From Naegleria gruberi (Eukaryota): DNA of 64,000 bases. The notes under the pieces are model-generated. The model was not told the origin of the DNA, did not search any database, and was given only the letters and a program-made list of their open reading frames with translations. This document shows, piece by piece, positions 3,619 to 64,000 of the stretch (its first letter is position 1; every line of letters starts with the position of its first letter). A program made the position numbers and the translations under genes. Where the stretch lies: the NCBI GenBank assembly GCA_000004985.1, contig GG738851.1, one strand, 5' to 3'.

Positions 3619-5360
3619 NNNNNNNNNNNNNNNNNNNNNNNNNNNNNNNNNNNNNNNNNNNNNNNNNNNNNNNNNNNNNNNNNNNNNNNNNNNNNNNNNN
3701 NNNNNNNNNNNNNNNNNNNNNNNNNNNNNNNNNNNNNNNNNNNNNNNNNNNNNNNNNNNNNNNNNNNNNNNNNNNNNNNNNNNNNNNNNNNNNNNNNNNN
3801 NNNNNNNNNNNNNNNNNNNNNNNNNNNNNNNNNNNNNNNNNNNNNNNNNNNNNNNNNNNNNNNNNNNNNNNNNNNNNNNNNNNNNNNNNNNNNNNNNNNN
3901 NNNNNNNNNNNNNNNNNNNNNNNNNNNNNNNNNNNNNNNNNNNNNNNNNNNNNNNNNNNNNNNNNNNNNNNNNNNNNNNNNNNNNNNNNNNNNNNNNNNN
4001 NNNNNNNNNNNNNNNNNNNNNNNNNNNNNNNNNNNNNNNNNNNNNNNNNNNNNNNNNNNNNNNNNNNNNNNNNNNNNNNNNNNNNNNNNNNNNNNNNNNN
4101 NNNNNNNNNNNNNNNNNNNNNNNNNNNNNNNNNNNNNNNNNNNNNNNNNNNNNNNNNNNNNNNNNNNNNNNNNNNNNNNNNNNNNNNNNNNNNNNNNNNN
4201 NNNNNNNNNNNNNNNNNNNNNNNNNNNNNNNNNNNNNNNNNNNNNNNNNNNNNNNNNNNNNNNNNNNNNNNNNNNNNNNNNNNNNNNNNNNNNNNNNNNN
4301 NNNNNNNNNNNNNNNNNNNNNNNNNNNNNNNNNNNNNNNNNNNNNNNNNNNNNNNNNNNNNNNNNNNNNNNNNNNNNNNNNNNNNNNNNNNNNNNNNNNN
4401 NNNNNNNNNNNNNNNNNNNNNNNNNNNNNNNNNNNNNNNNNNNNNNNNNNNNNNNNNNNNNNNNNNNNNNNNNNNNNNNNNNNNNNNNNNNNNNNNNNNN
4501 NNNNNNNNNNNNNNNNNNNNNNNNNNNNNNNNNNNNNNNNNNNNNNNNNNNNNNNNNNNNNNNNNNNNNNNNNNNNNNNNNNNNNNNNNNNNNNNNNNNN
4601 NNNNNNNNNNNNNNNNNNNNNNNNNNNNNNNNNNNNNNNNNNNNNNNNNNNNNNNNNNNNNNNNNNNNNNNNNNNNNNNNNNNNNNNNNNNNNNNNNNNN
4701 NNNNNNNNNNNNNNNNNNNNNNNNNNNNNNNNNNNNNNNNNNNNNNNNNNNNNNNNNNNNNNNNNNNNNNNNNNNNNNNNNNNNNNNNNNNNNNNNNNNN
4801 NNNNNNNNNNNNNNNNNNNNNNNNNNNNNNNNNNNNNNNNNNNNNNNNNNNNNNNNNNNNNNNNNNNNNNNNNNNNNNNNNNNNNNNNNNNNNNNNNNNN
4901 NNNNNNNNNNNNNNNNNNNNNNNNNNNNNNNNNNNNNNNNNNNNNNNNNNNNNNNNNNNNNNNNNNNNNNNNNNNNNNNNNNNNNNNNNNNNNNNNNNNN
5001 NNNNNNNNNNNNNNNNNNNNNNNNNNNNNNNNNNNNNNNNNNNNNNNNNNNNNNNNNNNNNNNNNNNNNNNNNNNNNNNNNNNNNNNNNNNNNNNNNNNN
5101 NNNNNNNNNNNNNNNNNNNNNNNNNNNNNNNNNNNNNNNNNNNNNNNNNNNNNNNNNNNNNNNNNNNNNNNNNNNNNNNNNNNNNNNNNNNNNNNNNNNN
5201 NNNNNNNNNNNNNNNNNNNNNNNNNNNNNNNNNNNNNNNNNNNNNNNNNNNNNNNNNNNNNNNNNNNNNNNNNNNNNNNNNNNNNNNNNNNNNNNNNNNN
5301 NNNNNNNNNNNNNNNNNNNNNNNNNNNNNNNNNNNNNNNNNNNNNNNNNNNNNNNNNNNN
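3619..5360. other. Assembly gap (1742 N). True size and content are unknown.
   Basis: A run of n characters. The same repeat family is seen on both sides of the gap, so it probably holds more repeat copies. Confidence 0.95.
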
Positions 5361-11239: not shown

Positions 11240-12636
11240 TCAATAATCAGAACCTCTACTCAATACTTCCTTACAGGTTGGTCTCAAGAAGATGGTATGT
11301 TCAAATTGAGCAGTATAACATCCTTTAACATCTACAAATGGTGGATATTCATTGACTATTCCATTGTTAACCAAATCACGAAGAGCAGTGAGATATTTTT
11401 TTTGACCAGTTCTGTCCAAGTATCTACGACAAAATGGAATGGATCCAAAATGGTCATTGATGACTTTAAGTAGCTCTCTAGATTCCTTATTTTTCAATTC
11501 AGAACCGTCACCATTGTAGGTAAATTTTCTTCCATAATGTGAGCATACACCTTCTTCAATGACATATCCTTTTCCAGTGGAACCAAAAGTTTCAATTGCA
11601 AAGAATTCATTTTCTTCCATTTTGGTGTTATTAGAAGAAGCAACAATTGGAACTGATTTACCTGCATGAACATGATATCTTTCAATAGAATGTCCACACA
11701 AGTTTTGAATGCTTTTAACTCTGTGAGTTTTTCCATTAATAATCTATTAGTGGTAGTTCAATAAACAATTAACATTGTAAATAAATCAATTAATTCAAAA
11801 TAAATACGTACAACTTCATAAGATTCCATTACTTCTTGAATAGCAGCTCCAACATCTCCTAATCTAACATCAATGCCAGCTGTTCTGACACCCATGTTTG
11901 TTGCTTCCTTGACAGCATCCAACAATGGCTGATATTGATCATTCCAACACATGGTAAATGCAGAATCAATAATGGTTCCATTTACATGAGTTCCCAAATC
12001 AAACTTGATCACATCATCCTTTCCAATAAGAGTTTCATCTCCACCATTTGGTGAATAATGAGCAGCAACATGATTGATGGAACAACCCAATGGAAATGCG
12101 AGTCCACTCTTCTTCTTGTCAGCTTCCAACAATTCTCTAACCTTTGCTTCATACATTTCAGCTGCATCAATAACCTTCATTCCAGGTTTAACAACTGAAT
12201 CCTTGAACCATTTTCTGGCAGTTCTATGAACCTCAGCTGCTTGTCTTGCTTCCATGAGCTGTTCTTGTAACTTTTCCTCTCTTTCTTCAGTATTAGGTTT
12301 CAATTCGGAAGGATGAAATCTCTTGGTCTTGTAATCATATTGTCCCAATTCACAGATTTCTCCCTCTGGAAACTTTCCGTCCTTATACAAATGCTTGATT
12401 GGTACAGTTGGTTCAGGTTGAGTTTGTTCAGTTGGCCATACTTTTTGTTTGTTTGAATGATTGTTAACTGATGGAATTGGCTTTGAGCTTTCCTTTTCAT
12501 TCTTCTTGCTCATTTCCATCAAAAACTTCATCTCATCATCAAAATGGGTGTTTACATTCTTCTTCTTGGAAGTAGTTGAGCCGCCGCCTCTGGTAGATAG
12601 AGTTTGTGCTGATAAAGTGCTCTTCTTGATGGACAT
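11240..12636 (-). CDS. METAP2: Methionine aminopeptidase 2 (MetAP2, M24A peptidase). It has two exons, 12636..11812 and 11744..11240, separated by a 67-bp GTACGT..AG intron at 11745..11811.
   Basis: The N-terminus is poly-Lys/Ser. The pita-bread catalytic core carries [28 protein letters not shown], ..[47 protein letters not shown] and the C-terminal [27 protein letters not shown]. The splice restores the conserved ...SYEV|IINGK junction. Confidence 0.85.
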
Positions 12637-13376: not shown

Positions 13377-15277
13377 ATGTCTCTACATCAAACACCACGA
13401 AAACAATCAACAGTTTCTTCATCCTCCTCCAACAACATTCACGTGGTGTTGCCATTCAATATCTTGATCAATCCATCAATAATCTATGACAATTCAAATG
13501 TCAATCGGTCAAACACACCAACCACAAATCACAGTACTGGCAATAGTAGTTTTCATAACCATAAATTCAACGCCTCTCCTTCATCCTCACCATCAATACA
13601 AAGTGTGAATAGTGATAATTCCAGTATTGATAGCTCATCAAATTTTACTCAAAGTTCAACACGTAAAATGACAACTGGCATTTCGACAATGGGAGAAAAA
13701 CAAATTGAAATGCAATTACAATGGCTTCATATTATGAAAGAAGAGTTTCTGAAATATATTGAAAAGAAGTCAAAACTTTCGAATGAAATGGAATTGAAAA
13801 TGCTTTTTCTCGAACATTTCTATGATCCAATAAGTGATAAAGTTCATGTAAAGAGTTTTAGGTCAATTGAGGATGTTTTACAGAGATTAGACTTGTTTTG
13901 TTCGAAAGTTCTGAAATGGTTAATGCCTGAAGATTGGATAGAAGTTGAAAAGATAAGAAATGAGCAGAAAGAACATTCAATTGTGTTTTATTTGAGACAA
14001 TTGGCGGGAAAACTGAAAACTATCAAGTTATTTCAACATGAATATTTGAGAGAATTTATTGACGAACAAGCTAGATATGAAATTGCAAAGGAAACCGATG
14101 GAAACAAGACGAATATTTCGAGTGTTGCATCAGAAGAGGAAATTACTGTTGTAATTAATGTTTCTCCAAAAAATTCTACAACAGATGCGCCTTCAGATCA
14201 GGAAACTAATAAGGAAATTACTGAAGATCCATTCAAATTTTTACTGGAACAGATCAAATTGATTTGTTCCATGTTTTCAATAGAATTGGGAGATTGGTTC
14301 AATTTTTTCGAATTTAAAAAGAGAAAAAAGTTTAAGAAATGGTTTGAAACTGGATTAAAGGATCAATGCATTCCAAAATATGTTTTGGAAATTTACAAAA
14401 GAAAAAAGGAATCTGCAGAAAAGGCAAACAAGGAATTCATGTTCAAGAATGAAGATTTAAATCAAAAGTACATTATTGAATCGGATTGGTATTATACTCA
14501 TTGGATTTCCAAGCAACATACAGATGATTGGTATGTTACCTATTCAGACATGCCAAATGTAGTGCAATGGAATTCAGACATTGATCGTTCAGTAGAAAAA
14601 CTAGGATTGAAAAATACCAAAATCATTGGCTATGCAAATTATCCAGTTTCTCAAGTTGTGAAATCAAACTCTAACGATGAGCATTTGAGATATCTATTTG
14701 GAGATGTCAACTGGTACAGTTTCACACCAATTAATATGGCACATTCCATACAGAAATATCCACACGCTTTAATGGTTACCACTTTCAAGTTTGGTCCATT
14801 GTTTGCAGCACGCGAAATTCAAAATGTCTTTTCTGCAAAGTCATCATTTTTGGGTAGTAGAATGACTGAGAGTTCAATTATATTCAAATCAAGCGATTAT
14901 TTCAATGTAAGTACACAATTGGTAATTTTTGTAAATTAATCACAAACTCTTAGAATAAGGAAACGAAAGATTTAATTAAGGTTCCATTCATTGGTGGCAG
15001 AATTTTCAATATGGTCGACAAGAATCGAACCAGATATATTGAAATCAGAACACTCAACATTGGTGGATTGTTGGGAACAAAGATTCTCTATTCGAATCCA
15101 CTCACCTCCAAGAAATTATGCCTGCAGAATTATCATGGCATTCTGAAGGCAGTGAAGGATAATGAGGCAAGGGGACATAAACTCCCATCTCCAGACGAAA
15201 ATTATTTGGCCAGATTGTTTAATAATTATTGTACCGTTTATTGTAAATTTGATTTGAGTAAGGACGCAATTTTGTAA
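13377..15277 (+). CDS. Hypothetical protein, ~600 aa. It is a paralogue of the gene at 55500-57536. It has two exons, 13377..14906 and 14981..15277, separated by a 74-bp GTAAGT..AAG intron.
   Basis: The ATG is at 13377. The N-terminus is Ser/Asn-rich. The C-terminal half aligns with the 55500-57536 product. DWYVTYSDMPNVVQWNSDIDRSVEKLGLKNTKIIG aligns with DWYLTYKKQSGELIQWCTKSDFSVDKLGAKTMKMIG. The second-exon start VPFIGGRIFNMVDKNRTRYIEIRTLN aligns with VPLVGSRFLQKLDNNRTRYIELKMLN. Confidence 0.7.
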
Positions 15278-15550: not shown

Positions 15551-17023
15551 TTGCTAACCAACTTTAACTTACAAAAAAACAACAACAATATGAAGTACAT
15601 CACTCTACTACTGTTAATCCTTTCTATTACCATTGTTGTTGACAATCGTCCAATTCAAACTCATACAAGTACAAGACACCAAGAAGAAATTGGAAACTTA
15701 TTTGATTTATTTAGACCTGGTTTTCAATACACTGGCAATCATTCCATCAATAATGTTAAAATCAATACTAAAAGTAATATCCAATATTCACCAATCATAC
15801 TAGTTGGTGGATTGGGTGGTTCTGCACTCATGTCACAGAGAAATCAATCGACCAGTGAACCTCATTGGTGGTGTGAAAAAACTACTGATCCATTTCAAAT
15901 CTGGTTATCTGTTAAAGAGATGGTTCCCTTCTTTACAGAAGATTGCTTTGTCAATGACATGTCGCTTATATTGAAGGATGGATTAGTTCGCCAAAAAGAT
16001 TCACGTGTGAAGATTTTCGGAAAGGATGTTGGGGGATTGGATGGATTGAATTCAATTCTCTCTGAATTTCAAAGCAAGTTTTACTACATGAAGCCAATAG
16101 CAGATTTCCTCGTTGCAAATGGAAATTATCAAGTTGGAAAGAGTTTGAGAGGTTTCACATACGATTGGAGATTGAGTGTGAGAGAGTGGGCAAATAATAC
16201 CAATTCTGTTGGTGGAGATTTCTTCATTTTGAAAAAACTGATTGAGGATACTTATACCATTAATGGAAATGTGAAGGTTTCACTATTGGGACATTCAATG
16301 GGAGCACCTTTCTTACAATATTTCCTTGCCAACTTTGTAAATCAAGCATGGAAAGATCAGTATATTTATAATTACATTCCAGTGGCTGGTCCTTTCGATG
16401 GAAGTCCATTTTCATTGGTAAGTATAATTGTTTAAAATGATTGTAAACGTGTAAAGATACTATTCGCACTTGGAACTAATTGGCAAATTCCAACATTCGA
16501 ATTTGAAAAGGCAAGAAAAATTGTCAGAGAATTTCCTTCAGTATTATTCATGTCTCCAAACAAATTTCCTTACAATTATCCATTTTTCACCTATGGAACT
16601 CAAAATTATCATGTTGAGCTTTCGGATATTGAAAATTTCTTTTCAAATGCTCAAGTTCCAAATGGATACAAACTCTACCAACATGAATACAGCCAATACA
16701 AGAATAATCGATATAATGCACCTAATGTAACCACCCATTGCATCTATGGTTATGGAATTCCAACAGTAACTCACATTGAATATTCAGGCAGCAAGGAATT
16801 GAAAGACTTGACCTATAAAGACGTCCTCAACAATATGAATACAGTGAATAGAGAAGATGGTGATGGAACTGTGCCATTATATTCAATGCAAATTTGTGAT
16901 GAGTTTGCCAAATATCAACAACAGCAAGTTCATGTCCATCGATTTTTCAATTCCACTCACGGAAGTATCATGAATGAAGAGAGGGTCTTCCGAACCATTC
17001 TGAATATTCTCCAATTTAATTAA
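15551..17023 (+). CDS. LCAT / group XV phospholipase A2-like acyltransferase (PF02450 family), secreted. It has two exons, 15551..16417 and 16457..17023, separated by a 39-bp GTAAGT..AAG intron.
   Basis: There is a signal-peptide-like N-terminus. The translation shows PIILVGGLGGSAL, WWCEKTTDPFQIW, the lipase nucleophile motif LLGHSMGAPF, and a second exon with GDGTVP (catalytic Asp) and a conserved His region. The splice is in frame (FSL|ILFALGTNWQIP). Confidence 0.75.
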
Positions 17024-35753: not shown

Positions 35754-37496
35754 ATGGGAAAAAACTTTCGTAACAAAACATTGCCATCGGCCAATACCAG
35801 TCATTCGATGGCCTCGCCATTGCAAATCCCCTTTTCAGCTCGTACTTCAAATCAAAAGTCGCCAAAACATTATCTCCTTCCTAAACATTATCAAGAGATT
35901 GTCAAGTATTTTGTATCGAAGGAGAATACAAGTGATTTGGCTTTGATCTTGTTGAAAAGGTTATTCTCTCCTTCCGATTGGAAAATGTATTATTTTGATT
36001 ATAAAGAGTGGAATGAAAATGTTACAGAGTGTAGGAAAGATCTGAGAAAGATGATTCAAATGGGAACATTGCAATCACTCTTGAGAGGAAAGTATTTTGT
36101 GGAGGATTTGACTATAGTTCCTGTTGAACAGGTTGAGGAGGAGACACAAATTCCTATTCATGAGAGAGTGTTCGTGAGAAAGCCATACGTTCCGAGGAAG
36201 AAGGAAGAAGAAATAGTTGAGGAGGAACCAGAAACTAAAAAGAAAAAGAAGAGGAAGAATAAGAAGGTTGATCCAGAGGCTGAATTTGAATTGACTGCTG
36301 AGGAATTGGCGCATGATGGAACATTTGAAGGATTTGAAATTATGGGAGAGGAAGACAGACCACCTTTGGATGAAATTATCATGTTGAACGAAAGAAATTT
36401 GAAAAAGGATCCTAAAAAGGATAAAAAGGATAAAAAGAAGGTCACCAAACCAACATCTAAAAAACCTGAGGAAGAGGAGGAAGAAGTTTTCTTCTTTGAT
36501 GATGGAATTCCAGAAAAAGAAATTCCAGTCACTACAATTCATTTGGATTTTAATGCCATCAAGAAGATTTCAAGCTCTACCGAGCTCATTGATTGTGCAG
36601 AATTGGAATCTGTTGTACAAATATCTAAAAAGATGAATACAAAGGAAAATCAAACAACCAAAACAATATTCCAAGTAGTTGAAGGAGATATTTTGGAAGC
36701 AGCATTGGCCTTGAAGAAAAACTCAAAGGTCAATCCACTCGTGCTTGTCAGTGCAAGCCAAAATATCCCAGGTGGTTTATATGATAAGGGAGGAAATACA
36801 CAGGAAGAGGATATGTGCCGAAGAACTTCTCTAGCACTTTGCTCTGCTGATCCATATAGAATATCAGGTCGTACGTGGTTTTATCCATTGCCAGAGTTTG
36901 GAGGAATCTATGTAAACAATTGTCTCGTGATTAGAAAATCAAAATATGAAGGATATGCATTCTTGGAAAAGCCTACCAACATGTCAATGTTCTTATTGAG
37001 TCCTATAATTAATCCTCCAACAGAGAAGAAGAAATTAGTGGCAACAGAAAATTCTGGAGATGCAACTTCTGAGCCAGAATATGAATATTTCCTTCCTGCT
37101 AAACTCACAACCACAATGAAAAAGAAGATTGCCTCCTATTTGGAAGTTGCACTCAGTAAGGGACATGATGCTTTGGTACTGTCTGATTTTGGTTGTGTGA
37201 ATTCACATTCTAATCCTTCCTATCACATTGCCTCACTCTTTAAGGAAGTTCTAATGAGCGACTTGTTTAGAGACAAATTCAAGCATGTCTTATTTGCCAT
37301 TACTCTAGACACTGAACCAGACAGCAGATTGACCAGTATTATTGAAGATGTCGATGAAAGCTCAACAGTCGTCAGACAGGAAAGTTATGAAATTCAAAAG
37401 AAGAACAATCTCACCATCTTTTCTAAAATATTCAACAATAGTGAATCTGCACCAACTGTAGATGAACATTTCAAAAAGATCAAAGAATCATTGTAA
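35754..37496 (+). CDS. Protein with a microbial-type poly(ADP-ribose) glycohydrolase macrodomain (DUF2263/PARG-like). The N-terminal ~300 aa include a K/E-rich disordered stretch.
   Basis: The PARG signature GGG-X6-8-QEE and flanking residues are present: LVLVSASQNIPGGLYDKGGNTQEEDMCRRTSLALCSADPY. Compare the bacterial PARG ..NPGGGf..G..AQEEsL.RsS.L. Confidence 0.6.
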   Translation: MGKNFRNKTLPSANTSHSMASPLQIPFSARTSNQKSPKHYLLPKHYQEIVKYFVSKENTSDLALILLKRLFSPSDWKMYYFDYKEWNENVTECRKDLRKMIQMGTLQSLLRGKYFVEDLTIVPVEQVEEETQIPIHERVFVRKPYVPRKKEEEIVEEEPETKKKKKRKNKKVDPEAEFELTAEELAHDGTFEGFEIMGEEDRPPLDEIIMLNERNLKKDPKKDKKDKKKVTKPTSKKPEEEEEEVFFFDDGIPEKEIPVTTIHLDFNAIKKISSSTELIDCAELESVVQISKKMNTKENQTTKTIFQVVEGDILEAALALKKNSKVNPLVLVSASQNIPGGLYDKGGNTQEEDMCRRTSLALCSADPYRISGRTWFYPLPEFGGIYVNNCLVIRKSKYEGYAFLEKPTNMSMFLLSPIINPPTEKKKLVATENSGDATSEPEYEYFLPAKLTTTMKKKIASYLEVALSKGHDALVLSDFGCVNSHSNPSYHIASLFKEVLMSDLFRDKFKHVLFAITLDTEPDSRLTSIIEDVDESSTVVRQESYEIQKKNNLTIFSKIFNNSESAPTVDEHFKKIKESL

Positions 37497-37558
37497 AATA
37501 ATATCATCCATCATAGTAATTGATGACACACATGTAAAGAATCCTCACACATAAAAAA

Positions 37559-39868
37559 ATGTCTCACTATCTCAGGTCAACACCATTATTGTTGCCCTCT
37601 CTCAACAGCAAACCATCAACACTATTAAAACAATTGGTAGCCAAGGAGGATTCTGCAACATTATATCTTCATCCTCCGAATATTATTACCACAACAACAA
37701 CAGAGAGTGATGCATCCGAAACCCTTCTCGATGTTTACAAAATTAAACAAAAATTGGGTGAAGGATCTTTCGGTCAGGTTTATCTTGCAAAGATAAAATC
37801 GACAAAGGAAAGATTAGCACTCAAGAGAATTGTGACGAATTTGAGTGGAGATGAAACTGAGGATGAGACCGAAAAGATTATTTATGAAAATTTGCAGGAG
37901 TATTATACATTGCGTGATTTGAAAGATCATCCAGCCATTGTGAAGGTAAAGGACGTCTTTCTAATGAAGGACAAAGCATCACAACAGATTGGTCATGTGA
38001 GCTATTCTATGAAATTATATGAACATGGAAGTTTATTCGAATGGATTACTAAAAGAAAGGGAAGTAACAAGAAGATGGATTTTAGAATTTTAAAATCAAT
38101 CATGATTCAATTGTGTCTAGTATTGAAATTTATCCATCAAAAGGGTTTACTTCACAGGTGAGTATTAAAATTATAGAAAAATGGATGTTAATTTACTGTG
38201 TACAGAGATATTAAACCAGCCAATATCTTTATTGATTACTTGAAGACGGAAAAGACCTTCCTTCCAGAGGAATATTTCAAAGAGGAAGAATCTTCAATAG
38301 TTGTAATTTTGGGAGATTTTGGAACTGTTAGAAAGTACAATGAAGGATCTATGGTTCAAACTACAGTTGGATCCCAAATGTACATGTCACCTGAGATTTT
38401 ATATGGTGAAAATTATCAAGTGGATGCAGATGTTTGGTCTCTGGGAGCTTCTCTATTTGAACTTGCTACTTACAAGCCAAAACCAATAGCAATGATGCTC
38501 TACAAGAGAGAAGGTCCCACAATTAAAAAGAATTTGGAGGATGCTCTGCTCTTGAATAATGAATATATCAAGACAGAACAAGATTCTAATGATTGTTTGG
38601 AATTTATCAATTTAATAATGGACATGTTCACTCTGGAAGTTTCTAAAAGACCAACCATTGAAACCTTGCTCTCCTCTCCATGTTTAAAACCTCAATTAGA
38701 TAGAGTACTACTAATCACTTCCCAATACACCTCCCAAATGATTCAGGAAGAGAATGAGCTATTAGTGAAATTGGTAGAAGATTTGAAATACAATGTCACA
38801 TCAACTTCCTCTCAAGGATTGAAAACATTTATGAAAAAGAACCTTCTGGCAACCACAAAGGATAATGATGGCAAAAAGAATAATCTCTTACTTGTGGCAA
38901 GTTGGTGGAGTTCTAACTTGAGAATATTCCCGGTAGCTCCACAAAATGAAAATTCGCCTTTGGAAATATCTAATGTTCCCTACATATTGGAATTGAAATC
39001 AGATATAACCTGTGAACAAATGATGCCAGTAAGTGAGAGTGAGGTCATTCTTGGATTGCAATCTGGAGAAATTGTTAAAATTAGAAGAGAGGGCTCTCAT
39101 TCATTCAAGGAAATTTCCAGATTGAATGCACACAAGCATCGATTGAAATGCTTTAGACAACTCAATGATCAATATTTTGCTTCTGGTGCCTATAACAAAT
39201 CGGTAAAAATTTGGGATCTCACAAACTTGGAATGTGTTCAAACATTTAAACACGAAAGTGGACACGTCTTTGCGTTGGCTAGTACTAACTCATCAAGGAG
39301 TATACAAGAAACGTCCTTGTTCAGTGTTGGAGCAGATATGAGTATTTATGAATGGGATTTTGAAAAGTGTTTACAAAAGAGAGAAAAAGCTCACTCTGAT
39401 GAAATTTACTCCTGTCTCTACAATTCAAACAGTTCAATCCTCTTGACAGGATCTTTCAAGGAACTAAAAGGATGGGACAAGAGACAACATCAACCAATTA
39501 TCAACTTTTCACCTCATTCAAACTATATTAACAAAATTGTTGAAATTGAAAAGAGCTATGACGGACAGGAATTTAGAGATGGAAATCATTTCATTACATG
39601 CTCTAATGATGGATTTATCAAATTGTGGGATGTTAGAAAGTTACCAAGCAATAGCTCCACTTCATCTACCGACCAAGAATGCAAGTCGTTCAAAGTCAAC
39701 CTGGATGCTATCAAGACACTCCATGTTTATTCCAATACTATTTTCTATGGAACTAAGAGAGGTAGGATGGGAACACTTGATTTGAAAACTTTCACATCTA
39801 TCAAAACCTACAATGCCATTAAGGGAGTCGTTGGTGTAGTAGATGTTTCATCCATACAAATGTTGTGA
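37559..39868 (+). CDS. Ser/Thr protein kinase (NEK-like) fused to a C-terminal WD40 beta-propeller. It has two exons, 37559..38157 and 38206..39868, separated by a 48-bp GTGAGT..CAG intron.
   Basis: The kinase motifs are LGEGSFGQVYLAK, ALKRI, the splice-restored HR|DIKPANIFI, ILGDFGT and GSQMYMSPE...DVWSLG. WD repeats follow, with ..SVKIWDL.. and ..FIKLWDV... Confidence 0.8.
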
Positions 39869-50911: not shown

Positions 50912-51540
50912 AGAAACCAATCAATGTAATTTTTTCGAAACTCTTAGTGAGACCTTGTGAGACCATCATATACCAATAAAAAAAATTAATTTGTGTGAAA
51001 CAACAATCGCTTCATTTTCAATTATTGGACTAAACATGGACCGTCCAATATGAAGTCGACATTCTGTCAAAATTATGCAAAGATAAAAGTGGACCAAATT
51101 GTGATATCAAGGCATTTTCCATATATCAATCGAAACCGATCATTTTCTATTCTGTTACGTTGTGATTACAGTAAAATGCAAAGCTCTATTTTAGATAGGA
51201 TAAACCTTTCAAATTTCCTATGGTGGTCTTGTCTTTCTTGTGAATGGAACAACAAAATTCATCGTTGCATTCAGGGGTTTATTCACAACAACGTTGAACA
51301 CTAGTTTTGGCAAAATGAAAATTTGTGGATTAGGAAGGAAATATTTCCAACTTTTGAATTGGAAAAGATAACCAACTAGATTGAGAATTTTGTAAAGATA
51401 ACACTTCCAATTCAATAACTCCCTTCATGGAAAATGAATTCAATAATTCAATTCCCCAACCTGATCATTTTCCATTTTTAGAAAATATTCAAATAGATTT
51501 TTCCAAAAACGAAACTTAACATTATTCGAAAAAAAATCAA

Positions 51541-52692
51541 ATGAAACAAAAACTACCTTCCAACATTAAAGTACTCATACTTTCTCTCCTTCTGGTCCTA
51601 CTACTCTACTGTAATCTTTCACATTCGGCCAGTTTACGTGGAGAATCTAGTACGAATCCAACCGATTCAAATCCGAAATCACCATTAGCTCCAGTTCAAG
51701 GTGGCGCCTACATTATCAGTAGCCAACAACCATCCACAGCCACACAGCAACAACCTACTCAAGGATCTGTCACTCAACAAACTCAAATCGATCCAAATTC
51801 TCAAAACCAAGTCGTGTCCACAACCTCGTATCCAGCATCTGCAAATCCAACTTCGATTACGGTTATTTATCCGAGTGGAGCTACTCCTAGTAGTCAAAAT
51901 CCAGTAATTCCTAGTCAACCTACTCAGACACAACCTACACAACCTACTCAGACGCAACCAACACAACCAAGTCAACCATTGCCACAGCCACAGCCACAAC
52001 CAATTCCAAATCAAAATCAACAACAATCATATCCACAATATTCACAACAAAGTACCTATAGTCAATATACAACTGGTCAACCACAACAACAGCAACAACA
52101 ACCTTATTATGGAAATAATCAACAACAACAACCTGTCTATTCACAACAACCAGTTTATAGTCAACCACAACAACAACAACAACCTTATTATGGAAATACT
52201 CAATATGCTCCACAACAATCTTATCCTCAAAATCAATATGTCCAACAGCAACCAGTGTATAGCCAACCAGTCCAACAACAACAACAACCTTATTATACTT
52301 CATCACCTCAATATGCTCCTGTCCAGAGTGGTCAACCAGCTTATTATCCACAAACACAACAGCCATACTATGGAAACACTCAATATGTCCAACAACAGCC
52401 TCAATATGTTCCACAAACTCAATATGTCCAACAACCTTACAATGGTGGTGCTCAATATTATTATCCACAACAATCTTATCCTCAAACTCAATATGTCCAA
52501 CAACCATACTATGGAACAACTGGTTATGCTGCACAACCATATGTATCGGGTGGATATCCTGCAACCACAGCTGTTGCGCCTGGCTATGGCTATGCTGCTC
52601 CTGCTGCAACTGCTGGATATGGTTATGCAGCTCCTGCAGTTGCCTATCAACCACAAGCTGTTTATTCTTCCTATCCTGCTTATTACTATTAG
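51541..52692 (+). CDS. Secreted Gln/Pro/Thr/Tyr-rich low-complexity protein (383 aa) with QQPYYGNTQYVQQQP-type repeats and a C-terminal GYGYAAPA repeat
   Basis: The signal peptide is MKQKLPSNIKVLILSLLLVLLLYCNLSHSA. The repeats are PTQ(T/P)QPTQPTQ, Q-rich and Y-rich. Overlapping ORFs on both strands are repeat artefacts. Confidence 0.65.
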   Translation: MKQKLPSNIKVLILSLLLVLLLYCNLSHSASLRGESSTNPTDSNPKSPLAPVQGGAYIISSQQPSTATQQQPTQGSVTQQTQIDPNSQNQVVSTTSYPASANPTSITVIYPSGATPSSQNPVIPSQPTQTQPTQPTQTQPTQPSQPLPQPQPQPIPNQNQQQSYPQYSQQSTYSQYTTGQPQQQQQQPYYGNNQQQQPVYSQQPVYSQPQQQQQPYYGNTQYAPQQSYPQNQYVQQQPVYSQPVQQQQQPYYTSSPQYAPVQSGQPAYYPQTQQPYYGNTQYVQQQPQYVPQTQYVQQPYNGGAQYYYPQQSYPQTQYVQQPYYGTTGYAAQPYVSGGYPATTAVAPGYGYAAPAATAGYGYAAPAVAYQPQAVYSSYPAYYY

Positions 52693-52795
52693 ACAATGAT
52701 TTGAAAAAATGTAAATTAGATTTGAAATTGTAAAATTGTACAGAGAGAAGTGAAATTCAATGGATTTTGTGTGAGAAATAAAAAGAGTTTGTTTT

Positions 52796-54712
52796 TTATT
52801 CCTTCAATTCAATTTCATTCCTATGTTCCTCTTCAAGGATTGGTGTTTCATTGTGATGAATGGTTGTTGGTTCGGCTGCTGCATCAAAGTGAAGTTCATG
52901 AGCTGGTTCAATTTGATCATGAATTGGAACTGGTTGACCATTTCCTGTATCCTGAGCACGAGACAATCTAACACAGAAAATCATGAATGAAGATAGTACT
53001 TGGAGTGATGCACCAAGAGCGTACAATAACAGGTAGCCCATTCCAACAACATCTGGTGCAATAGCATCACCAATTAAAATGATCAATCCTCCCAAAGGTA
53101 CACCCAATAATTCAGGAACTGTACCAGAAATATTCCACAAGGCCAAATCCTTTCCAGAATCATCTTTGGTAATCAGAACTGAATTTACAAGTGACAAGTC
53201 CACACTAATAAATGATCCAATACCCAAACCATAGAGAATGGAGCAACACAGAATCATTACACTGTAAGATCTGAAAATGATTAAAATAATACTGGCAATA
53301 CCACAGCCCAAGGCACCAGCACTGTACACATATCTTCTTCCAATAAGCCCGGCTATTTTTTGTGCAAATAATGCACTAACAAATGTAAAAGCGAAAACAA
53401 TTCCAAGGAATAAACTCAAAGCTTCCTCATTATTGGTTGGGAATTTGTTGGTCAAGATGAAATTATATGGAGTCAAAACTTCTTGAATAAAATAGAAAAA
53501 GTAATTTCTGGCAGCAGCATTTGTCAATTGAATAGTGAAACGAGTAATAAAAACCCAAGTAAAATTCCTATTCTTGAATGGAACCAAAAATGCAAGAGCA
53601 TAATTGAGGGCTCTCTTGTAGAATCGTGGTTTTGGTGCTTCTTGTGCAGGTTCTGTAGTGAGTGGAACGTCTTCAAATTCTCCTGGTTTCTTGGCAGCTT
53701 CCTTTTCAATTTGTTTGACCTTTGTCTTTCTAAGCTCTCTATGGAAGAGCATGAGAGGTACACAAACAATTGAACACAGAGCTGCATATCCCAAACATAC
53801 CCAAATCAAATCAACATGACCAATTATCACACCTCCCAAAACAACTCCCAACATGACTCCAATCAAAGTAAAAACACCAACAAGTGCTGAAACCAAATTG
53901 ATTTGTTCTTGTGGGAACAAATCTGTTACCATTGCAGTCACAATAGCTTGTGAAGTGACATATCCACATTTTCCGATACACAGCACAGCTCCATACATGA
54001 CAAATATGAAAACATAATACTGTGGAAACTGTGTATGCATCATTGAACAAATAGATTGCAGAATAATCATCAATGCCCACACCAGAGTAGTAACCACAAC
54101 AATTGGAATACGTGATTTCCTACCAATCCTATCAGAAATATTACCAACTATGGGACTAACAATCACTCCGATAACTGTTGCAATAGAAACAACAATACTC
54201 AAGTAGAGTTCCTTATTTTCTGATCCCAACATTTGAACGACAAGTTTTGGCAATAACAATCCAAGTACAAACGAACTTGTTGAACCACTTCCTATATAAT
54301 ATATAGAATATCCAATTGTTTTGTAGAGTGGTTGTCTTTGTAATCCATCATGATGAAGATTTTGTGGAACTTTCTCATGATGTTGACTATCAATTGTGTT
54401 GTTATCATCATTGTGAGGAGTTGATGGTGTATCTAATCTTGCCAATTCCTCTCCCATTACATCTAACATGGGTTTTGCAATGGTTCTCTCTGGATGTTTA
54501 ATGTCTATTGGTTCCAAGTGAAACGAGGAGGTCATTGGATTGTATTCGGTCAGAATGCCAATGCCTTCATTAGAATGATGGCTATGAGAAGAAACGTGGG
54601 AGGAGAAGGAAGCAGTATGGGCTGATGTAGGTGTTTTCTGTTGTTGTTGTTGTTGTATTGGATGAGAGGCGATATCTTCATTGTGAGGATTCCCTGATGA
54701 TGATAGATTCAT
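52796..54712 (-). CDS. Major facilitator superfamily transporter with a ~170-aa disordered His/Gln/Ser-rich N-terminal extension
   Basis: There are 12 predicted TM helices. The MFS loop 2-3 signature is GNISDRIGRKSRIPIVVVT. A large central loop is present. Confidence 0.7.
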   Translation of the reverse strand: MNLSSSGNPHNEDIASHPIQQQQQQKTPTSAHTASFSSHVSSHSHHSNEGIGILTEYNPMTSSFHLEPIDIKHPERTIAKPMLDVMGEELARLDTPSTPHNDDNNTIDSQHHEKVPQNLHHDGLQRQPLYKTIGYSIYYIGSGSTSSFVLGLLLPKLVVQMLGSENKELYLSIVVSIATVIGVIVSPIVGNISDRIGRKSRIPIVVVTTLVWALMIILQSICSMMHTQFPQYYVFIFVMYGAVLCIGKCGYVTSQAIVTAMVTDLFPQEQINLVSALVGVFTLIGVMLGVVLGGVIIGHVDLIWVCLGYAALCSIVCVPLMLFHRELRKTKVKQIEKEAAKKPGEFEDVPLTTEPAQEAPKPRFYKRALNYALAFLVPFKNRNFTWVFITRFTIQLTNAAARNYFFYFIQEVLTPYNFILTNKFPTNNEEALSLFLGIVFAFTFVSALFAQKIAGLIGRRYVYSAGALGCGIASIILIIFRSYSVMILCCSILYGLGIGSFISVDLSLVNSVLITKDDSGKDLALWNISGTVPELLGVPLGGLIILIGDAIAPDVVGMGYLLLYALGASLQVLSSFMIFCVRLSRAQDTGNGQPVPIHDQIEPAHELHFDAAAEPTTIHHNETPILEEEHRNEIELKE

Positions 54713-60788: not shown

Positions 60789-63700
60789 ATGACCACCAAG
60801 GTACAATTAGTAAGGGATGCTTCTCTGGCTTTTCAACAAAAAAAGTACGATGAATGTTTGAAAATAATTTCGCACGATGAACATCATGAATCATCATTGC
60901 CTTGCTCGGAAGAGTTGGGGATGGACATCAAGTTAGGAACCATTGTGGGAATGTGTCATTATAACAATGCTGTTATTCAAAAAGAAATGGCAAAGGAATT
61001 GTTTGATAAGGCTTTGATTCAATTTGATAAGGTCATTTCTCAATATAGGGAATATGAAAATACTGTACATCAAGATCAAGGAAATGTCAAATCAATTGTT
61101 GAAAATAACATTGGATTGGAGGTTTTTATATCTACAACAAAGGTTAATTATTTGGCAGGTCTTTGTCATTTATATAGTAACAGGTACAAGGATGCTATAC
61201 CTTATTTTAGTAGTGCTGCTCTTATGGCCTCAACCTTACAGAGTAATATTGGATATGTGGCCAATAAGGATCATGCCAAATCTTTCCTTAAAGAGTCACC
61301 AAAGTACTATTTAAATCGAGGAATCTGCTACAATGAGTGTAAAAATAATGAGTTGGCAGAGAGGGATCTTGTCAAATATGTGGCACTAATTGAAACATCT
61401 GATTTGAGTCCAGACACTCAAGCACCTCTCTTATTTGTTGCGTTTACTAGTTTAGCAAGCACAAAATTAAACAAGAATCAACAAGAGGATGCAATCAAGT
61501 ATTTCAATAAGGCCATCGATTCTTTCAACGTAATGGAACCGGATGCCCAACAGGTACATTTTGAAAACTGTGTTAAGGCTAAACTCAAAAGAGCCACAAC
61601 ACTTCAAAAGTATATTAGTTACCATGTGTATAACTGTAAGGAAGATGCAAACCTTATGAAAGTAATTGAAAGTTATAGAAAAATGGCCTCTGATGATTTG
61701 GAAACCGCAAGAAAATACAAGAGACTCGAGTTTTATTACTTGTACCAATATGTAAAAATGATAGTGATGTTCTGCAAACATGTGGAAGGACTCATTGAAA
61801 AAGATGAATTGGTACCTCTCTATCAAGATGCTGCAGACAAGTTGCAAGAATGCATTTCAATTCAACCAAAGAATGCAAAATTGTACGGGGACTTGGCATT
61901 GTGTAAGAGCAAGATTGGGAAAGAAAAATTGGAAGAAATTTTAGATTTGTACAATAAGAGTTTTGAATTAACCAATGGGGAACCTACGGATAAGGTATCT
62001 AAGCAAAAGTTGGCCAGGATTTATTTCGAAAGATCTGTCATTTATTTCAAATTATCCAATACTGATAAGGCCAAACAAGATTTGGATAGAGCTATTCGTT
62101 TGAATCCATACTTTTCAGATGCTTACTACAATAGAGGTTTTTTATTGAAGGATTCCGAAGATGATATTGAACAAACTTTGGACGATTTGGGAGCAACCTG
62201 TGAAATGAACCTTGAGGACACTGAGTGTGCATTTCTTACGTAAGTTGATTGGTATTGTTCAGTTTGATTGTAATTATATATAGTGCCATTATTTTAGCAA
62301 AACAAGAAAACAAGGAAGGTAGTCGTTCCATTGTCGAAGAATTCATCAAGTTTAACCCTAATGATTCCAATTTGAAAGATCTTTTATTAGCTCTTAATAA
62401 CGAGGGCAGTTTGGATGCATTTGAATCCTTACCTAAATTCAGAGAATCCCACAAGAAGAACAAACTCTGGACACCTAATAGAAAAACAAAACCAAGTCTA
62501 GACAGAGCATCAATTAGAAATAGAGTTACAAGTGCCAAACTCGACGAACAAGACACTGATGATGGCTATTATTGTGATCCAACCTTCCCAGCAGTGTCAA
62601 AATCAATCTACGGAACAGAGGATAGTGATTTACCATCTGAATTGACTTGGTACAGAACTTGGGACTTGTGTTTCCTCAGAGAAGAGTCCCAACTTTTTGT
62701 TGATGGTACAAGCAATACTGATATCATGCAAGGTGGTATAGGTGATTGTTGGTTACTTTCTGCATTTTCAATTGTTGCTGACTATCCAGATATCATGAGT
62801 AAGATTATATTGGAGTCAAAATCAGATCCAGATAACGGAAAGTATGTCTTTTCCATTTTCGGAAAAGAAGGCCCCACAGAAGTAGTTATTGACAATAGAT
62901 TGCCATGTTTTTCTGATTCGGGAAGTCTTGCATTCTCCAGGAGTGGAACCTCAAACGAAATGTGGATTTCCTTATTAGAGAAGGCATATGCTGCGTATTA
63001 TGGAAGCTACCAAGCACTTCAAAGTGGTTACATGAGGGATGCCCTTGTTAGTTTAACAGGTGGAGTTCCTTTCACTCTTGATATCAGTGTAGAAAACAAG
63101 GAGGAGGTATGGGAAATCTTAAAGACTATTAAAAAGAAGAGCACTGATCCCTCATCATACTGCTTAATGGGATGTAGATCTGACAAGGCACCAGCCAGAA
63201 CTGGTATTCAAACTCACCATGCCTATGCAATTCTGGATTGTTTCGACTGTCCTCTTGAAATGACCAATGGAAAGAGAACTCGTCTTGTCAAACTTAAGAA
63301 TCCATGGGGTTATGGTGGTGAATTAGAATCTGGAGATTACTCTGATGATAGTAAGTGGTGGACTAAGGAGCTCAGGAAATATGTTGGACATGAATCAAAA
63401 ATTGATGGCATTTTCTTCTTGACTTTGGGGGCACTTGTTAAATATTATACGCAAATTCAAGGAGTAAGGATTTTTGATGAGGAGCATTGGAGTATAGCAC
63501 GTTTTGTGGATGAATTCAAGCAAAAACCTGGACATGACTTGGATGACTGGGGCCTAGATATTTGTTCTTTCTCGTCTCATTATGTTATTCACAACACCCA
63601 CGAAGACAACAAGCTAGTAATTGAACTTTCTCAAAAAGACACCAGATTTACAAGAGATCAAAAAGAAGAGTTCAAATGTGTTGCCATTTATGTATTTAAA

Positions 63701-63946
63701 TATCCTGAAAGTCAATTCAATGGCGAAGAAAGCACCAGGTTAGCAACAATTGGTGAAGAGAATGAAACTGTCGTTCAGGGTATCTACGACGGTTGTTACA
63801 GTGAAACAAGCATTGAGACAACACTACCTGTTGGCCATTATGTTGCAATTCCAGCTGAGCTTTACTCTAAGACACCAACAGAGAAACTTTCACTCAAAAT
63901 TATTTCAAGAAAACCTGTCACTATTGTTAGATTGCCTGTTCAATAA
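60789..63946 (+). CDS. TPR-repeat / calpain-type cysteine protease fusion protein, ~1036 aa. Exon 1 (60789..62239) encodes the TPR region. A 44-bp GTAAGT..TAG intron at 62240..62283 removes the apparent TAA stop. Exon 2 (62284..63946) encodes the calpain core.
   Basis: TPR-like helices include ..YYNRGFLLKDSEDDIEQTLDDL.. and DLDRAIRLNPYFSDAYY. The splice AC|GTAAGT...ATATATAG|T is in phase and joins ..CAFLT to AIILAKQENKEG.. The calpain motifs are MQGGIGDCWLLSAFS (Cys), IQTHHAYAILD (His) and KLKNPWGYGGE (Asn/Trp). Confidence 0.65.
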
Positions 63947-64000
63947 ATATTGTCTACATCATTGATGTATAAATGAATTAAAATCCATTACTGGTTGTCA

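Follow-up and report, generated by a model that had tools for sequence, protein, structure and literature searches.

A two-exon Naegleria gruberi gene that very likely encodes a TPR-calpain, with an apparent internal stop codon in the intron donor

Positions 60789-63946 (+ strand) of the window, which is the whole stretch of 64,000 nucleotides analysed, very likely constitute one two-exon gene of Naegleria gruberi, or of a near-identical strain, encoding a TPR-calpain. In the proposed model, the spliceosome would remove a 44-nt U2-type GT-AG intron (62240-62283, phase 2), and the resulting mRNA would encode a non-classical calpain of 1037 aa, comprising in order a TPR superhelix of ~525 aa, a flexible linker of ~50 aa, the CysPc core and a weak C2-like domain III. 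Comparison with public records revealed that the spliced product was identical at 1037/1037 residues to RefSeq XP_002681002.1 (EFC48258.1; UniProt D2V3V2), which carries the annotation name "calpain family cysteine protease-containing protein" in Naegleria gruberi; to this record the locus contributes only the genomic view of its single intron. The protein is also listed in two published surveys, as "TRP-CysPc-C2L, 1037 aa, C,H,N" under XP_002681002.1 in Table S1 of Zhao et al. 2012 (PMC3563603), and as "TPR 8 ~ TPR 11 ~ pC2" under D2V3V2_NAEGR in Rawlings 2015 (PMC4631099). An earlier note on this DNA had described the architecture as unfamiliar from classical calpains; it is indeed non-classical and not of the MIT type, but both surveys had already recorded it. 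The gene model and the unusual domain layout are already annotated and published, and are not new. The main value of the analysis is quality control: the gene model recovered by a sequence-only reading agrees exactly with the public annotation. The features of the locus are as follows.

60789-62239, + strand: coding part of exon 1, from the ATG to base 2 of codon 484; TPR-like helical solenoid, residues 1-483 (ORF listing, Pfam, AF2, identity to XP_002681002.1)
62240-62283, + strand: predicted GT-AG intron of the spliceosomal type (phase 2, 44 bp, 25% GC), with donor GTAAGT, acceptor TATATAG and an in-frame TAA at 62241-62243
62284-62422, + strand: start of exon 2, base 3 of codon 484 plus residues 485-530; three last helices of the TPR solenoid (AF2, Pfam of relatives, alignment)
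62423-62569, + strand: linker, residues ~531-579, Lys/Arg-rich; AF2 pLDDT <30, without secondary structure; alignment gappy and variable
62570-63460, + strand: calpain protease core (Peptidase_C2 / CysPc), residues 580-876 (Pfam PF00648, PDB calpain cores, triad)
63596-63868, + strand: C2-like / calpain domain III-like beta region, residues ~922-1012 (weak PF01067 match)
63944-63946, + strand: TAA stop codon of the spliced gene (sequence)

Gene structure and the splice junction

The upstream open reading frame (ORF1), which starts at ATG 60789, has ACG at 62238-62240 as its last sense codon, followed by TAA at 62241-62243. This TAA had been proposed to belong to a GTAAGT donor, and the coordinates hold: the donor occupies 62240-62245, and the stop codon corresponds to its bases 2-4 read in phase 2. 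On the acceptor side (...TTATATATAG/TGCC), the AG lies at 62282-62283 and exon 2 begins at 62284. Removal of the 44 bp keeps the frame, so that the suggested in-phase acceptor at 62283/62284 does join ORF1 to the calpain ORF (ORF2). The joined CDS of 3114 nt stays in frame and yields a 1037-aa product, with the last base of the stop codon at 63946; the size given previously was ~1036 aa. The residues predicted across the 62239/62284 splice junction are ...ECAFLTAIILAK..., and the junction-spanning peptide of the spliced TPR-calpain would read ...MNLEDTECAFLTAIILAK. The earlier note had presented the locus as a fusion created by an intron that removes an apparent stop codon. The intron is borne out, but the removed stop is no special feature, because a GTAA donor in phase 2 always gives NNG TAA when the intron is left unspliced. 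A non-standard code in which TAA is a sense codon was rejected, since long ORFs across the window use all three stops; it is also countered by a TGA at most 8 codons further in the ORF1 frame.

We compared the 44-bp intron (GTAAGT...TATAG) with introns in the window that had been validated through LCAT and kinase-domain continuity. Its size falls within the validated local range of 39-68 bp, and the local introns at 16418-16456 (39 bp, GTAAGT) and 38158-38205 (48 bp, GTGAGT) match it in size and donor. Introns of two environmental relatives, L002 (41 bp) and L003 (61 bp), sit at the same alignment column (609) and in the identical phase; their donors are GTAAGT or GTATGT, and they are unrelated in length and sequence, in contrast to the conserved protein sequence on either side. 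The fused architecture itself recurs in Willaertia magna, where the search for relatives recovered TPR + Peptidase_C2 + Calpain_III in a protein of 1150 aa encoded by one ORF, in agreement with the earlier reading. That gene (KAL9645185.1) is a single uninterrupted ORF of 3453 nt with the intron absent at this site, and its protein aligns to the spliced product with no indel at the junction. The family alignment is likewise gap-free at the junction, and the few gaps within ±60 columns sit ~55 columns downstream. As a modest addition, this analysis shows that at least three members of the family share the intron position and that the Willaertia homologue lacks the intron. We infer the junction 62239/62284 from this comparative and structural consistency, together with the existing computational gene model.

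The same data bear on the choice of acceptor. An intron that is real but ends at 62262 (23 bp) or at 62322 (83 bp) would also be in phase and would leave the frame open; either version is highly unlikely. An intron of 23 nt would be shorter than every validated local intron and would add seven residues (LIVIIYS) relative to the intron-less Willaertia magna sequence, whereas one of 83 nt would remove 13 conserved residues from the TPR region. With an intron of 44 bp, in contrast, the alignment is gap-free at the junction and the gene equals the annotated model.

The 44 bp might instead be a spurious insertion that breaks one ORF, produced by faulty assembly or sequencing or belonging to a pseudogene; this would fit the draft state of the scaffold, which has N gaps in other places. 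We consider the chance of this negligible. The identical 44 bp, bar one SNP and with GT and AG intact, occur in L001, a metagenome contig of independent origin that is ~0.4% divergent; the splice signals are canonical, relatives have introns at the same site, and neither the catalytic triad nor either ORF is disrupted. This contig was also considered as a possible transcript and rejected, since it is genomic DNA with the intron present; as such it excludes an assembly artefact and does not prove splicing.

A further alternative treats the locus as two genes: one for a TPR protein of 484 aa that truly ends at TAA 62241-62243, and downstream of it an independent calpain gene with a start of its own. 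This is how an ORF caller of the prokaryotic kind divides the locus, and metagenome contigs likewise list separate ORFs, yet we regard this reading as very improbable. The calpain ORF had been described as lacking its own start ATG, and this was confirmed: its listed start is TTG 62249 and its earliest in-frame ATG is at 62726. This ATG is post-junction residue 148, whereas Peptidase_C2 begins at post-junction residue 96, so that it lies 52 residues inside the domain and an ATG-initiated calpain would miss the ~52 initial residues of the core. Upstream of the ATG, 159 codons are free of stops (P ~6e-6 at local base composition), a run length that none of the 87,242 open runs obtained by shuffling the sequence attained, and these 159 codons are conserved in homologues. 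The spacing between ORF1 and ORF2 is only 5 nt, which leaves no space for a promoter or UTR; a bacterial promoter/terminator scan of the junction was disregarded as not meaningful for a eukaryote. The continuous Willaertia magna ORF also argues against two genes, and the split would halve a TPR helix in the AF2 model.

Domain content of the predicted product

The TPR identity of the N-terminal half was assessed by Pfam, AF2 and Foldseek. ORF1 exceeded the Pfam cut-offs for TPR_2 (54.8 bits vs 27), TPR_1 (54.5 vs 27.8), TPR_17 (51.4 vs 24.4), TPR_8 (42.2 vs 25.7) and TPR_12 (38.9 vs 30.1). The AF2 model contained ~25 consecutive helices over residues 3-530, with pLDDT mostly 75-90, and Foldseek of the TPR half returned TPR superhelices as all of its top matches, the closest being SPY/OGT and APC/C. 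A predicted helix at residues 478-490 (pLDDT ~75-85) crosses junction residue 484, and is followed in exon 2 by helices at 494-507 and 512-522 (pLDDT ~81-85). Consistently, Pfam TPR_9, TPR_19 and TPR_14 matches in the paralogue (P0142) and the Willaertia homologue (P0143) cross the junction-equivalent residues 543 and 544, and a TPR-type "...L(D/N)P(N/D)N" motif lies downstream of the junction in the family alignment. The results support the proposed TPR-like helices N-terminal to a calpain core, but put the length of the region at ~525-530 aa and not ~480 aa, because the solenoid runs three further helices (~45 residues) into exon 2.

For the C-terminal half, ORF2 matched Peptidase_C2 (PF00648) with E 8.3e-66 and 222.5 bits (cut-off 23.8) over profile positions 1-294 of 297, and the PDB cores of calpain-5, -3, -1 and -9 matched the protease core at E ~1e-33. 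The predicted triad consists of Cys639 (TGT 62747-62749), His796 (CAT 63218-63220) and Asn823 (AAT 63299-63301), and its motifs GDC639W, H796AYA and N823PWG are conserved in all five of the family members compared (5/5). By its full-length profile match and triad motifs, the predicted product is a member of the calpain family (MEROPS C2, PF00648). Domain III (PF01067) gave a weak match just under the cut-off (20.4 bits vs 21), while the Willaertia magna homologue scored 31.8 bits, above the cut-off; AF2 placed beta-strands in this region with low confidence. Built on a 3-sequence alignment, AF2 gave a usable model for the TPR half but a very poor one for the calpain half (pLDDT ~25, pTM 0.41). 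Among the Pfam matches of the product there were no EF-hand families, even at E<=1, and MIT reached 10.5 bits (E 0.67) against a cut-off of 30; the Pfam profile search detected no transmembrane or C2 module.

The calpain half alone was used as the homology query, as the full-length query drew mostly generic bacterial TPR proteins. Eight further long calpain homologues were all without N-terminal TPRs (0/8); their modules were EF-hand, cofilin/ADF or zinc-ribbon, with one sub-threshold C-terminal TPR_12. In an exhaustive HMMER search, the paralogue D2VVS6 aligned to query residues 49-1014 in one stretch, and among the best 150 matches of the exhaustive search, those to the TPR half were limited to this small heterolobosean clade. 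TPR-CysPc is a lineage-restricted calpain variant of Heterolobosea that has already been catalogued (Zhao 2012; Rawlings 2015).

Proposed function and the question of intron retention

The predicted D2V3V2 product is a non-classical calpain, and its triad is intact. By analogy, its TPR superhelix probably serves as a protein-protein interaction arm: it would recruit partners or substrates and offer them to the protease at the C-terminus, or it would localise the enzyme. The TPR arms of OGT and SPINDLY serve their catalytic domains in this way, and MIT domains do so for calpain-7/PalB. Control would then be exerted by partner binding to the TPR arm instead of by a PEF or small-subunit module.

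Splicing plus regulated retention, giving a functional 484-aa TPR-only isoform, is compatible with the two-exon gene; we rate it as unlikely. Intron retention is reported to predominate among the types of alternative splicing in eukaryotes and has been detected in N. gruberi (PMC6142364), for which RNA-seq exists as ENA PRJEB23822; retention would produce an immediate stop in both the D2V3V2 gene and L002. This stop, however, is an automatic by-product of phase 2 and a GTAA donor; the donor of L003 is GTATGT, without an immediate stop, and in the AF2 model the truncated protein would stop mid-helix. A stronger version, in which the mid-helix phase-2 intron, its position conserved across divergent paralogues, is a regulated retention switch that yields a TPR-only decoy and makes partner binding the main control, is a distant prospect. 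If it were true, the unspliced mRNA would give a TPR-only protein ending at or near the donor that acts as a dominant-negative rival of the full-length calpain for its partners, and the protease would be controlled mainly via partners on the TPR arm and not via Ca2+/PEF.

Comparison with known systems

The preferred reading, a single TPR-calpain, was set against known proteins. The classical calpains CAPN1/2 (PDB 1TL9, 1KFU, 3BOW) have a homologous core (E ~1e-33 to 1e-28) with the same Cys/His/Asn triad, whereas in D2V3V2 a large N-terminal TPR arm replaces the short anchor helix. D2V3V2 is also without an EF-hand/PEF domain IV, so that it presumably forms no heterodimer with a small subunit. 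Calpain-7, PalB and Rim13 (MIT-CysPc-C2L-C2L) are likewise non-classical, with a helical N-terminal interaction module and without PEF; in contrast to this type, D2V3V2 has ~525 aa of TPR instead of one or two MIT domains of ~70 aa, and a single weak C2L domain.

Structurally, the TPR half matched OGT and SPINDLY best (Foldseek E ~1e-10, identity ~14%), with TM-scores typical of generic TPR matches. The logic shared with D2V3V2 is that an extended TPR superhelix at the N-terminus feeds the enzyme domain at the C-terminus; the likeness is an analogy only, as the catalytic domains are unrelated (glycosyltransferase vs cysteine protease).

The closest counterparts are D2VVS6 (XP_002671835.1, 1113 aa) and Willaertia KAL9645185.1 (1150 aa), which have the same order of TPR, CysPc and domain III. 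Both align end to end with D2V3V2 at 31-33% identity with the triad conserved, and their N-termini are 50-100 aa longer. D2V3V2 is the divergent member, since the other two are closer to each other (39-50% identity). Outside this group, the Ectocarpus TPR-C2-TML-CysPc calpain also has N-terminal TPRs (Zhao et al. 2012); it is a membrane-anchored TML (Dek1-like) protein, whereas D2V3V2 is without a detected transmembrane or C2 module, and the gain of TPRs in the two proteins probably represents independent domain acquisition.

Gene structure and the spliced reading frame

The window is gene-dense eukaryotic DNA with a GC content of ~33% and the standard genetic code. The analysis of a TPR reading frame (ORF1) and the calpain reading frame downstream of it on the same strand (ORF2) showed that the two belong to one gene, with two exons, for a non-classical calpain. 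An earlier note had proposed that an intron fuses the two frames, and the sequence features were confirmed as described there: the TAA ending ORF1 sits within a GTAAGT donor, an in-phase acceptor joins ORF1 to ORF2 at 62283/62284, and ORF2 lacks its own ATG, its listed start being a TTG.

60789 to 62241-62243, + strand: ORF1, from ATG to TAA in the ORF listing
62240-62245, + strand: donor GTAAGT, directly after the last exon bases ...TTAC (final base 62239)
62283, + strand: last base of the acceptor ...TTATATATAG, after which T at 62284 completes codon 484

The phase-2 intron (44 bp, GC 25%) splits codon 484 as AC|T (Thr), and its removal leaves an open CDS of 3114 nt for 1037 aa and a stop codon, beyond which 54 bp of the window remain. 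ORF2 is open from 62249, and its first in-frame ATG lies at 62726. A run like the 159 stop-free codons preceding this ATG would arise by chance with a probability of ~6e-6 given this base composition, and none of 87,242 open runs in shuffled sequence was as long. Searching with the calpain half retrieved a near-identical metagenome-contig ORF (P0121; 99% in the HMMER search), whose 90%-identity cluster also includes P0141, the 1037-aa Naegleria gruberi protein XP_002681002.1 / EFC48258.1 / UniProt D2V3V2, recorded as 'calpain family cysteine protease-containing protein'. The spliced translation was identical to P0141 at 1037 of 1037 positions, so the model proposed earlier is exactly the public gene model.

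The 44-bp intron is typical for the N. gruberi genome, as comparison with the 39-bp and 48-bp introns among the following local examples illustrates.

16418-16456, + strand: 39-bp intron, GTAAGT donor, within an LCAT-like domain; validated
38158-38205, + strand: 48-bp intron, GTGAGT donor, interrupting a kinase catalytic loop that reads HRDIKPAN once spliced; validated
14907-14953, + strand: short intron joining neighbouring long ORFs
37493-37539, + strand: short intron joining neighbouring long ORFs
11744-11811, - strand: short intron joining neighbouring long ORFs

These local introns span 39-68 bp, with a GC content of 21-28% and GTAAGT, GTGAGT or GTACGT donors, and several carry a possible branch site, a TGTAAT/GTTAAT-like motif 10-20 nt 5' of the acceptor.

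Elsewhere in the window, a (CCCAAA)x71 array at 2501-2923 (99% matches; TTTGGG on the opposite strand) lies directly 3' of a 50-N gap (2451-2500), and another gap, of 1742 N (3619-5360), follows after ~700 bp. Such an array within a scaffold may represent either a chromosome end that scaffolding placed internally or an interstitial tract of telomere-like repeats. At 51520-52803, several frames are open on both strands in C/A-rich sequence with CAA/CCA-type repeats, a pattern resembling Gln/Pro-rich coding sequence of low complexity.

Comparative evidence for the splice

Orthologues with the same fused architecture, a check suggested in the earlier note, were sought by running HMMER exhaustively against 1.84 billion representatives. 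Two were found, the N. gruberi paralogue D2VVS6 (P0142) and Willaertia magna KAL9645185.1 (P0143), both with TPR, Peptidase_C2 and Calpain_III in Pfam. The paralogue aligned in one stretch over query residues 49-1014, straight through residue 484. The W. magna gene is a single uninterrupted 3453-nt ORF whose translation is exactly P0143, and the fusion is therefore present intron-free in a related genus. Two other proteins, P0156 and P0148, gave TPR-only matches ending at the junction position. Directly downstream of the W. magna TPR-calpain, a protein kinase gene with a faint C2 match occupies 5145-6453 of contig JBEGDK010000140.1.

P0156 and P0148 are encoded on two contigs from environmental, heterolobosean-like eukaryotes with TPR-calpain genes, L002 (JGI 3300002220 contig MLSBCLC_10298240) and L003 (Logan SRR29240419_25). 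On both, a calpain ORF lies directly downstream of the TPR ORF on the same strand, and the homologous codon carries a donor, which reads GTAAGT in L002 and GTATGT in L003. Excising 41 bp (L002) or 61 bp (L003) yields continuous proteins of >1000 aa. The introns of these genes and of the N. gruberi gene share one alignment column (609) and are all phase 2; the three are unrelated in sequence, and the neighbouring protein sequence is conserved. The L002 and L003 proteins are 44-50% identical to D2VVS6, and L002 has a Sec1-family gene upstream.

A five-protein alignment has zero gap at the junction, which excludes alternative in-phase acceptors giving a 23-bp or 83-bp intron. A separately started calpain is also strongly disfavoured, as ATG initiation would fall 52 residues inside the protease domain. 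An assembly artefact was dismissed since an independent genomic contig, L001 (~0.4% divergent), carries the same 44 bp with GT and AG intact and one internal SNP. Splicing of ORF1 to ORF2 at 62239|62284 is a predicted event supported by sequence comparison and modelling. L001 is a 2.6-kb metagenome contig (ENA ERZ929261, run ERR1078381, project PRJEB11402) that aligned to 61778-64000 at ~99.6% identity with a handful of SNPs and has a 26-bp deletion directly after the stop codon, which points to another allele, or to a Naegleria strain closely related to this one, in that sample.

Phase 2 leaves the final codon of the exon one base short, and without splicing the G of GT fills it, so a GTAAGT donor then necessarily reads NNG TAA. 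The same immediate stop would arise in unspliced L002; in L003 there is no immediate stop, and the unspliced frame continues to a stop at the acceptor. The apparent stop codon simply follows from the donor consensus and is not a designed feature. The sole remaining speculative angle is a TPR-only isoform made by regulated retention of the intron, which we regard as highly improbable.

Protein architecture and proposed function

ORF1 matched several TPR families above Pfam cut-offs. ORF2 matched full-length Peptidase_C2 (Pfam E 8e-66), solved calpain cores (E ~1e-33) and, at a borderline level, Calpain_III.

Residues 1 to ~530: TPR solenoid
~50 aa: linker, low confidence in the model
Residues 580-876: CysPc core, with Cys639, His796 and Asn823
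C2-like domain: weak match

The order proposed earlier, TPR-like helices and then the calpain core, held, and the TPR extent was revised from ~480 aa to residues 1 to ~530. Pfam TPR_9, TPR_19 and TPR_14 matches in P0142 and P0143 cover the junction-equivalent residues 543 and 544. In the AlphaFold2 model, helix 478-490 crosses residue 484 (pLDDT ~75-85), and exon 2 encodes two more helices beyond it. These matches and the model show that the TPR array continues across the junction. The catalytic half was poorly modelled (pLDDT ~25, pTM 0.41) and uninformative on docking or autoinhibition. The best structural matches of the TPR half were SPINDLY/OGT and APC/C subunits, and we infer that it forms a long TPR superhelix of generic type. 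On the analogy of OGT/SPY, and of calpain-7/PalB with its MIT domains, this superhelix would most likely serve the protease as an arm that binds partners or substrates, or as one that localises it.

Relation to known calpains

Judged by its profile match and its Cys-His-Asn triad, which is conserved in all 5 family members, the predicted protein belongs to the calpain family. A Pfam search of the TPR-calpain detected no EF-hand/PEF or MIT domains. It is thus not a classical calpain, a class that has PEF, nor of the calpain-7 type, which has MIT. The earlier view of the architecture as foreign to classical calpains and unlike calpain-7 was borne out in this respect, but the architecture had already been published for D2V3V2. 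Zhao et al. 2012 (PMC3563603) counted TPR among 24 domains combined with CysPc and listed XP_002681002 (D2V3V2, Naegleria gruberi) in Table S1 as 'TRP-CysPc-C2L 1037 C,H,N'. Rawlings 2015 (PMC4631099) stated TPR domains for the Naegleria homologues, giving D2V3V2_NAEGR as 'TPR 8 ~ TPR 11 ~ pC2' and D2VVS6_NAEGR as 'TPR 1 ~ TPR 11 ~ pC2 ~ Calpain III'. Both the gene model and the TPR-calpain architecture are therefore already known. Among the best 150 representatives in the HMMER search, TPR-half matches were confined to the Naegleria/Willaertia group and the two environmental contigs, and the 8 other long calpains checked carried EF-hand, cofilin/ADF or zinc-ribbon modules in place of TPR.
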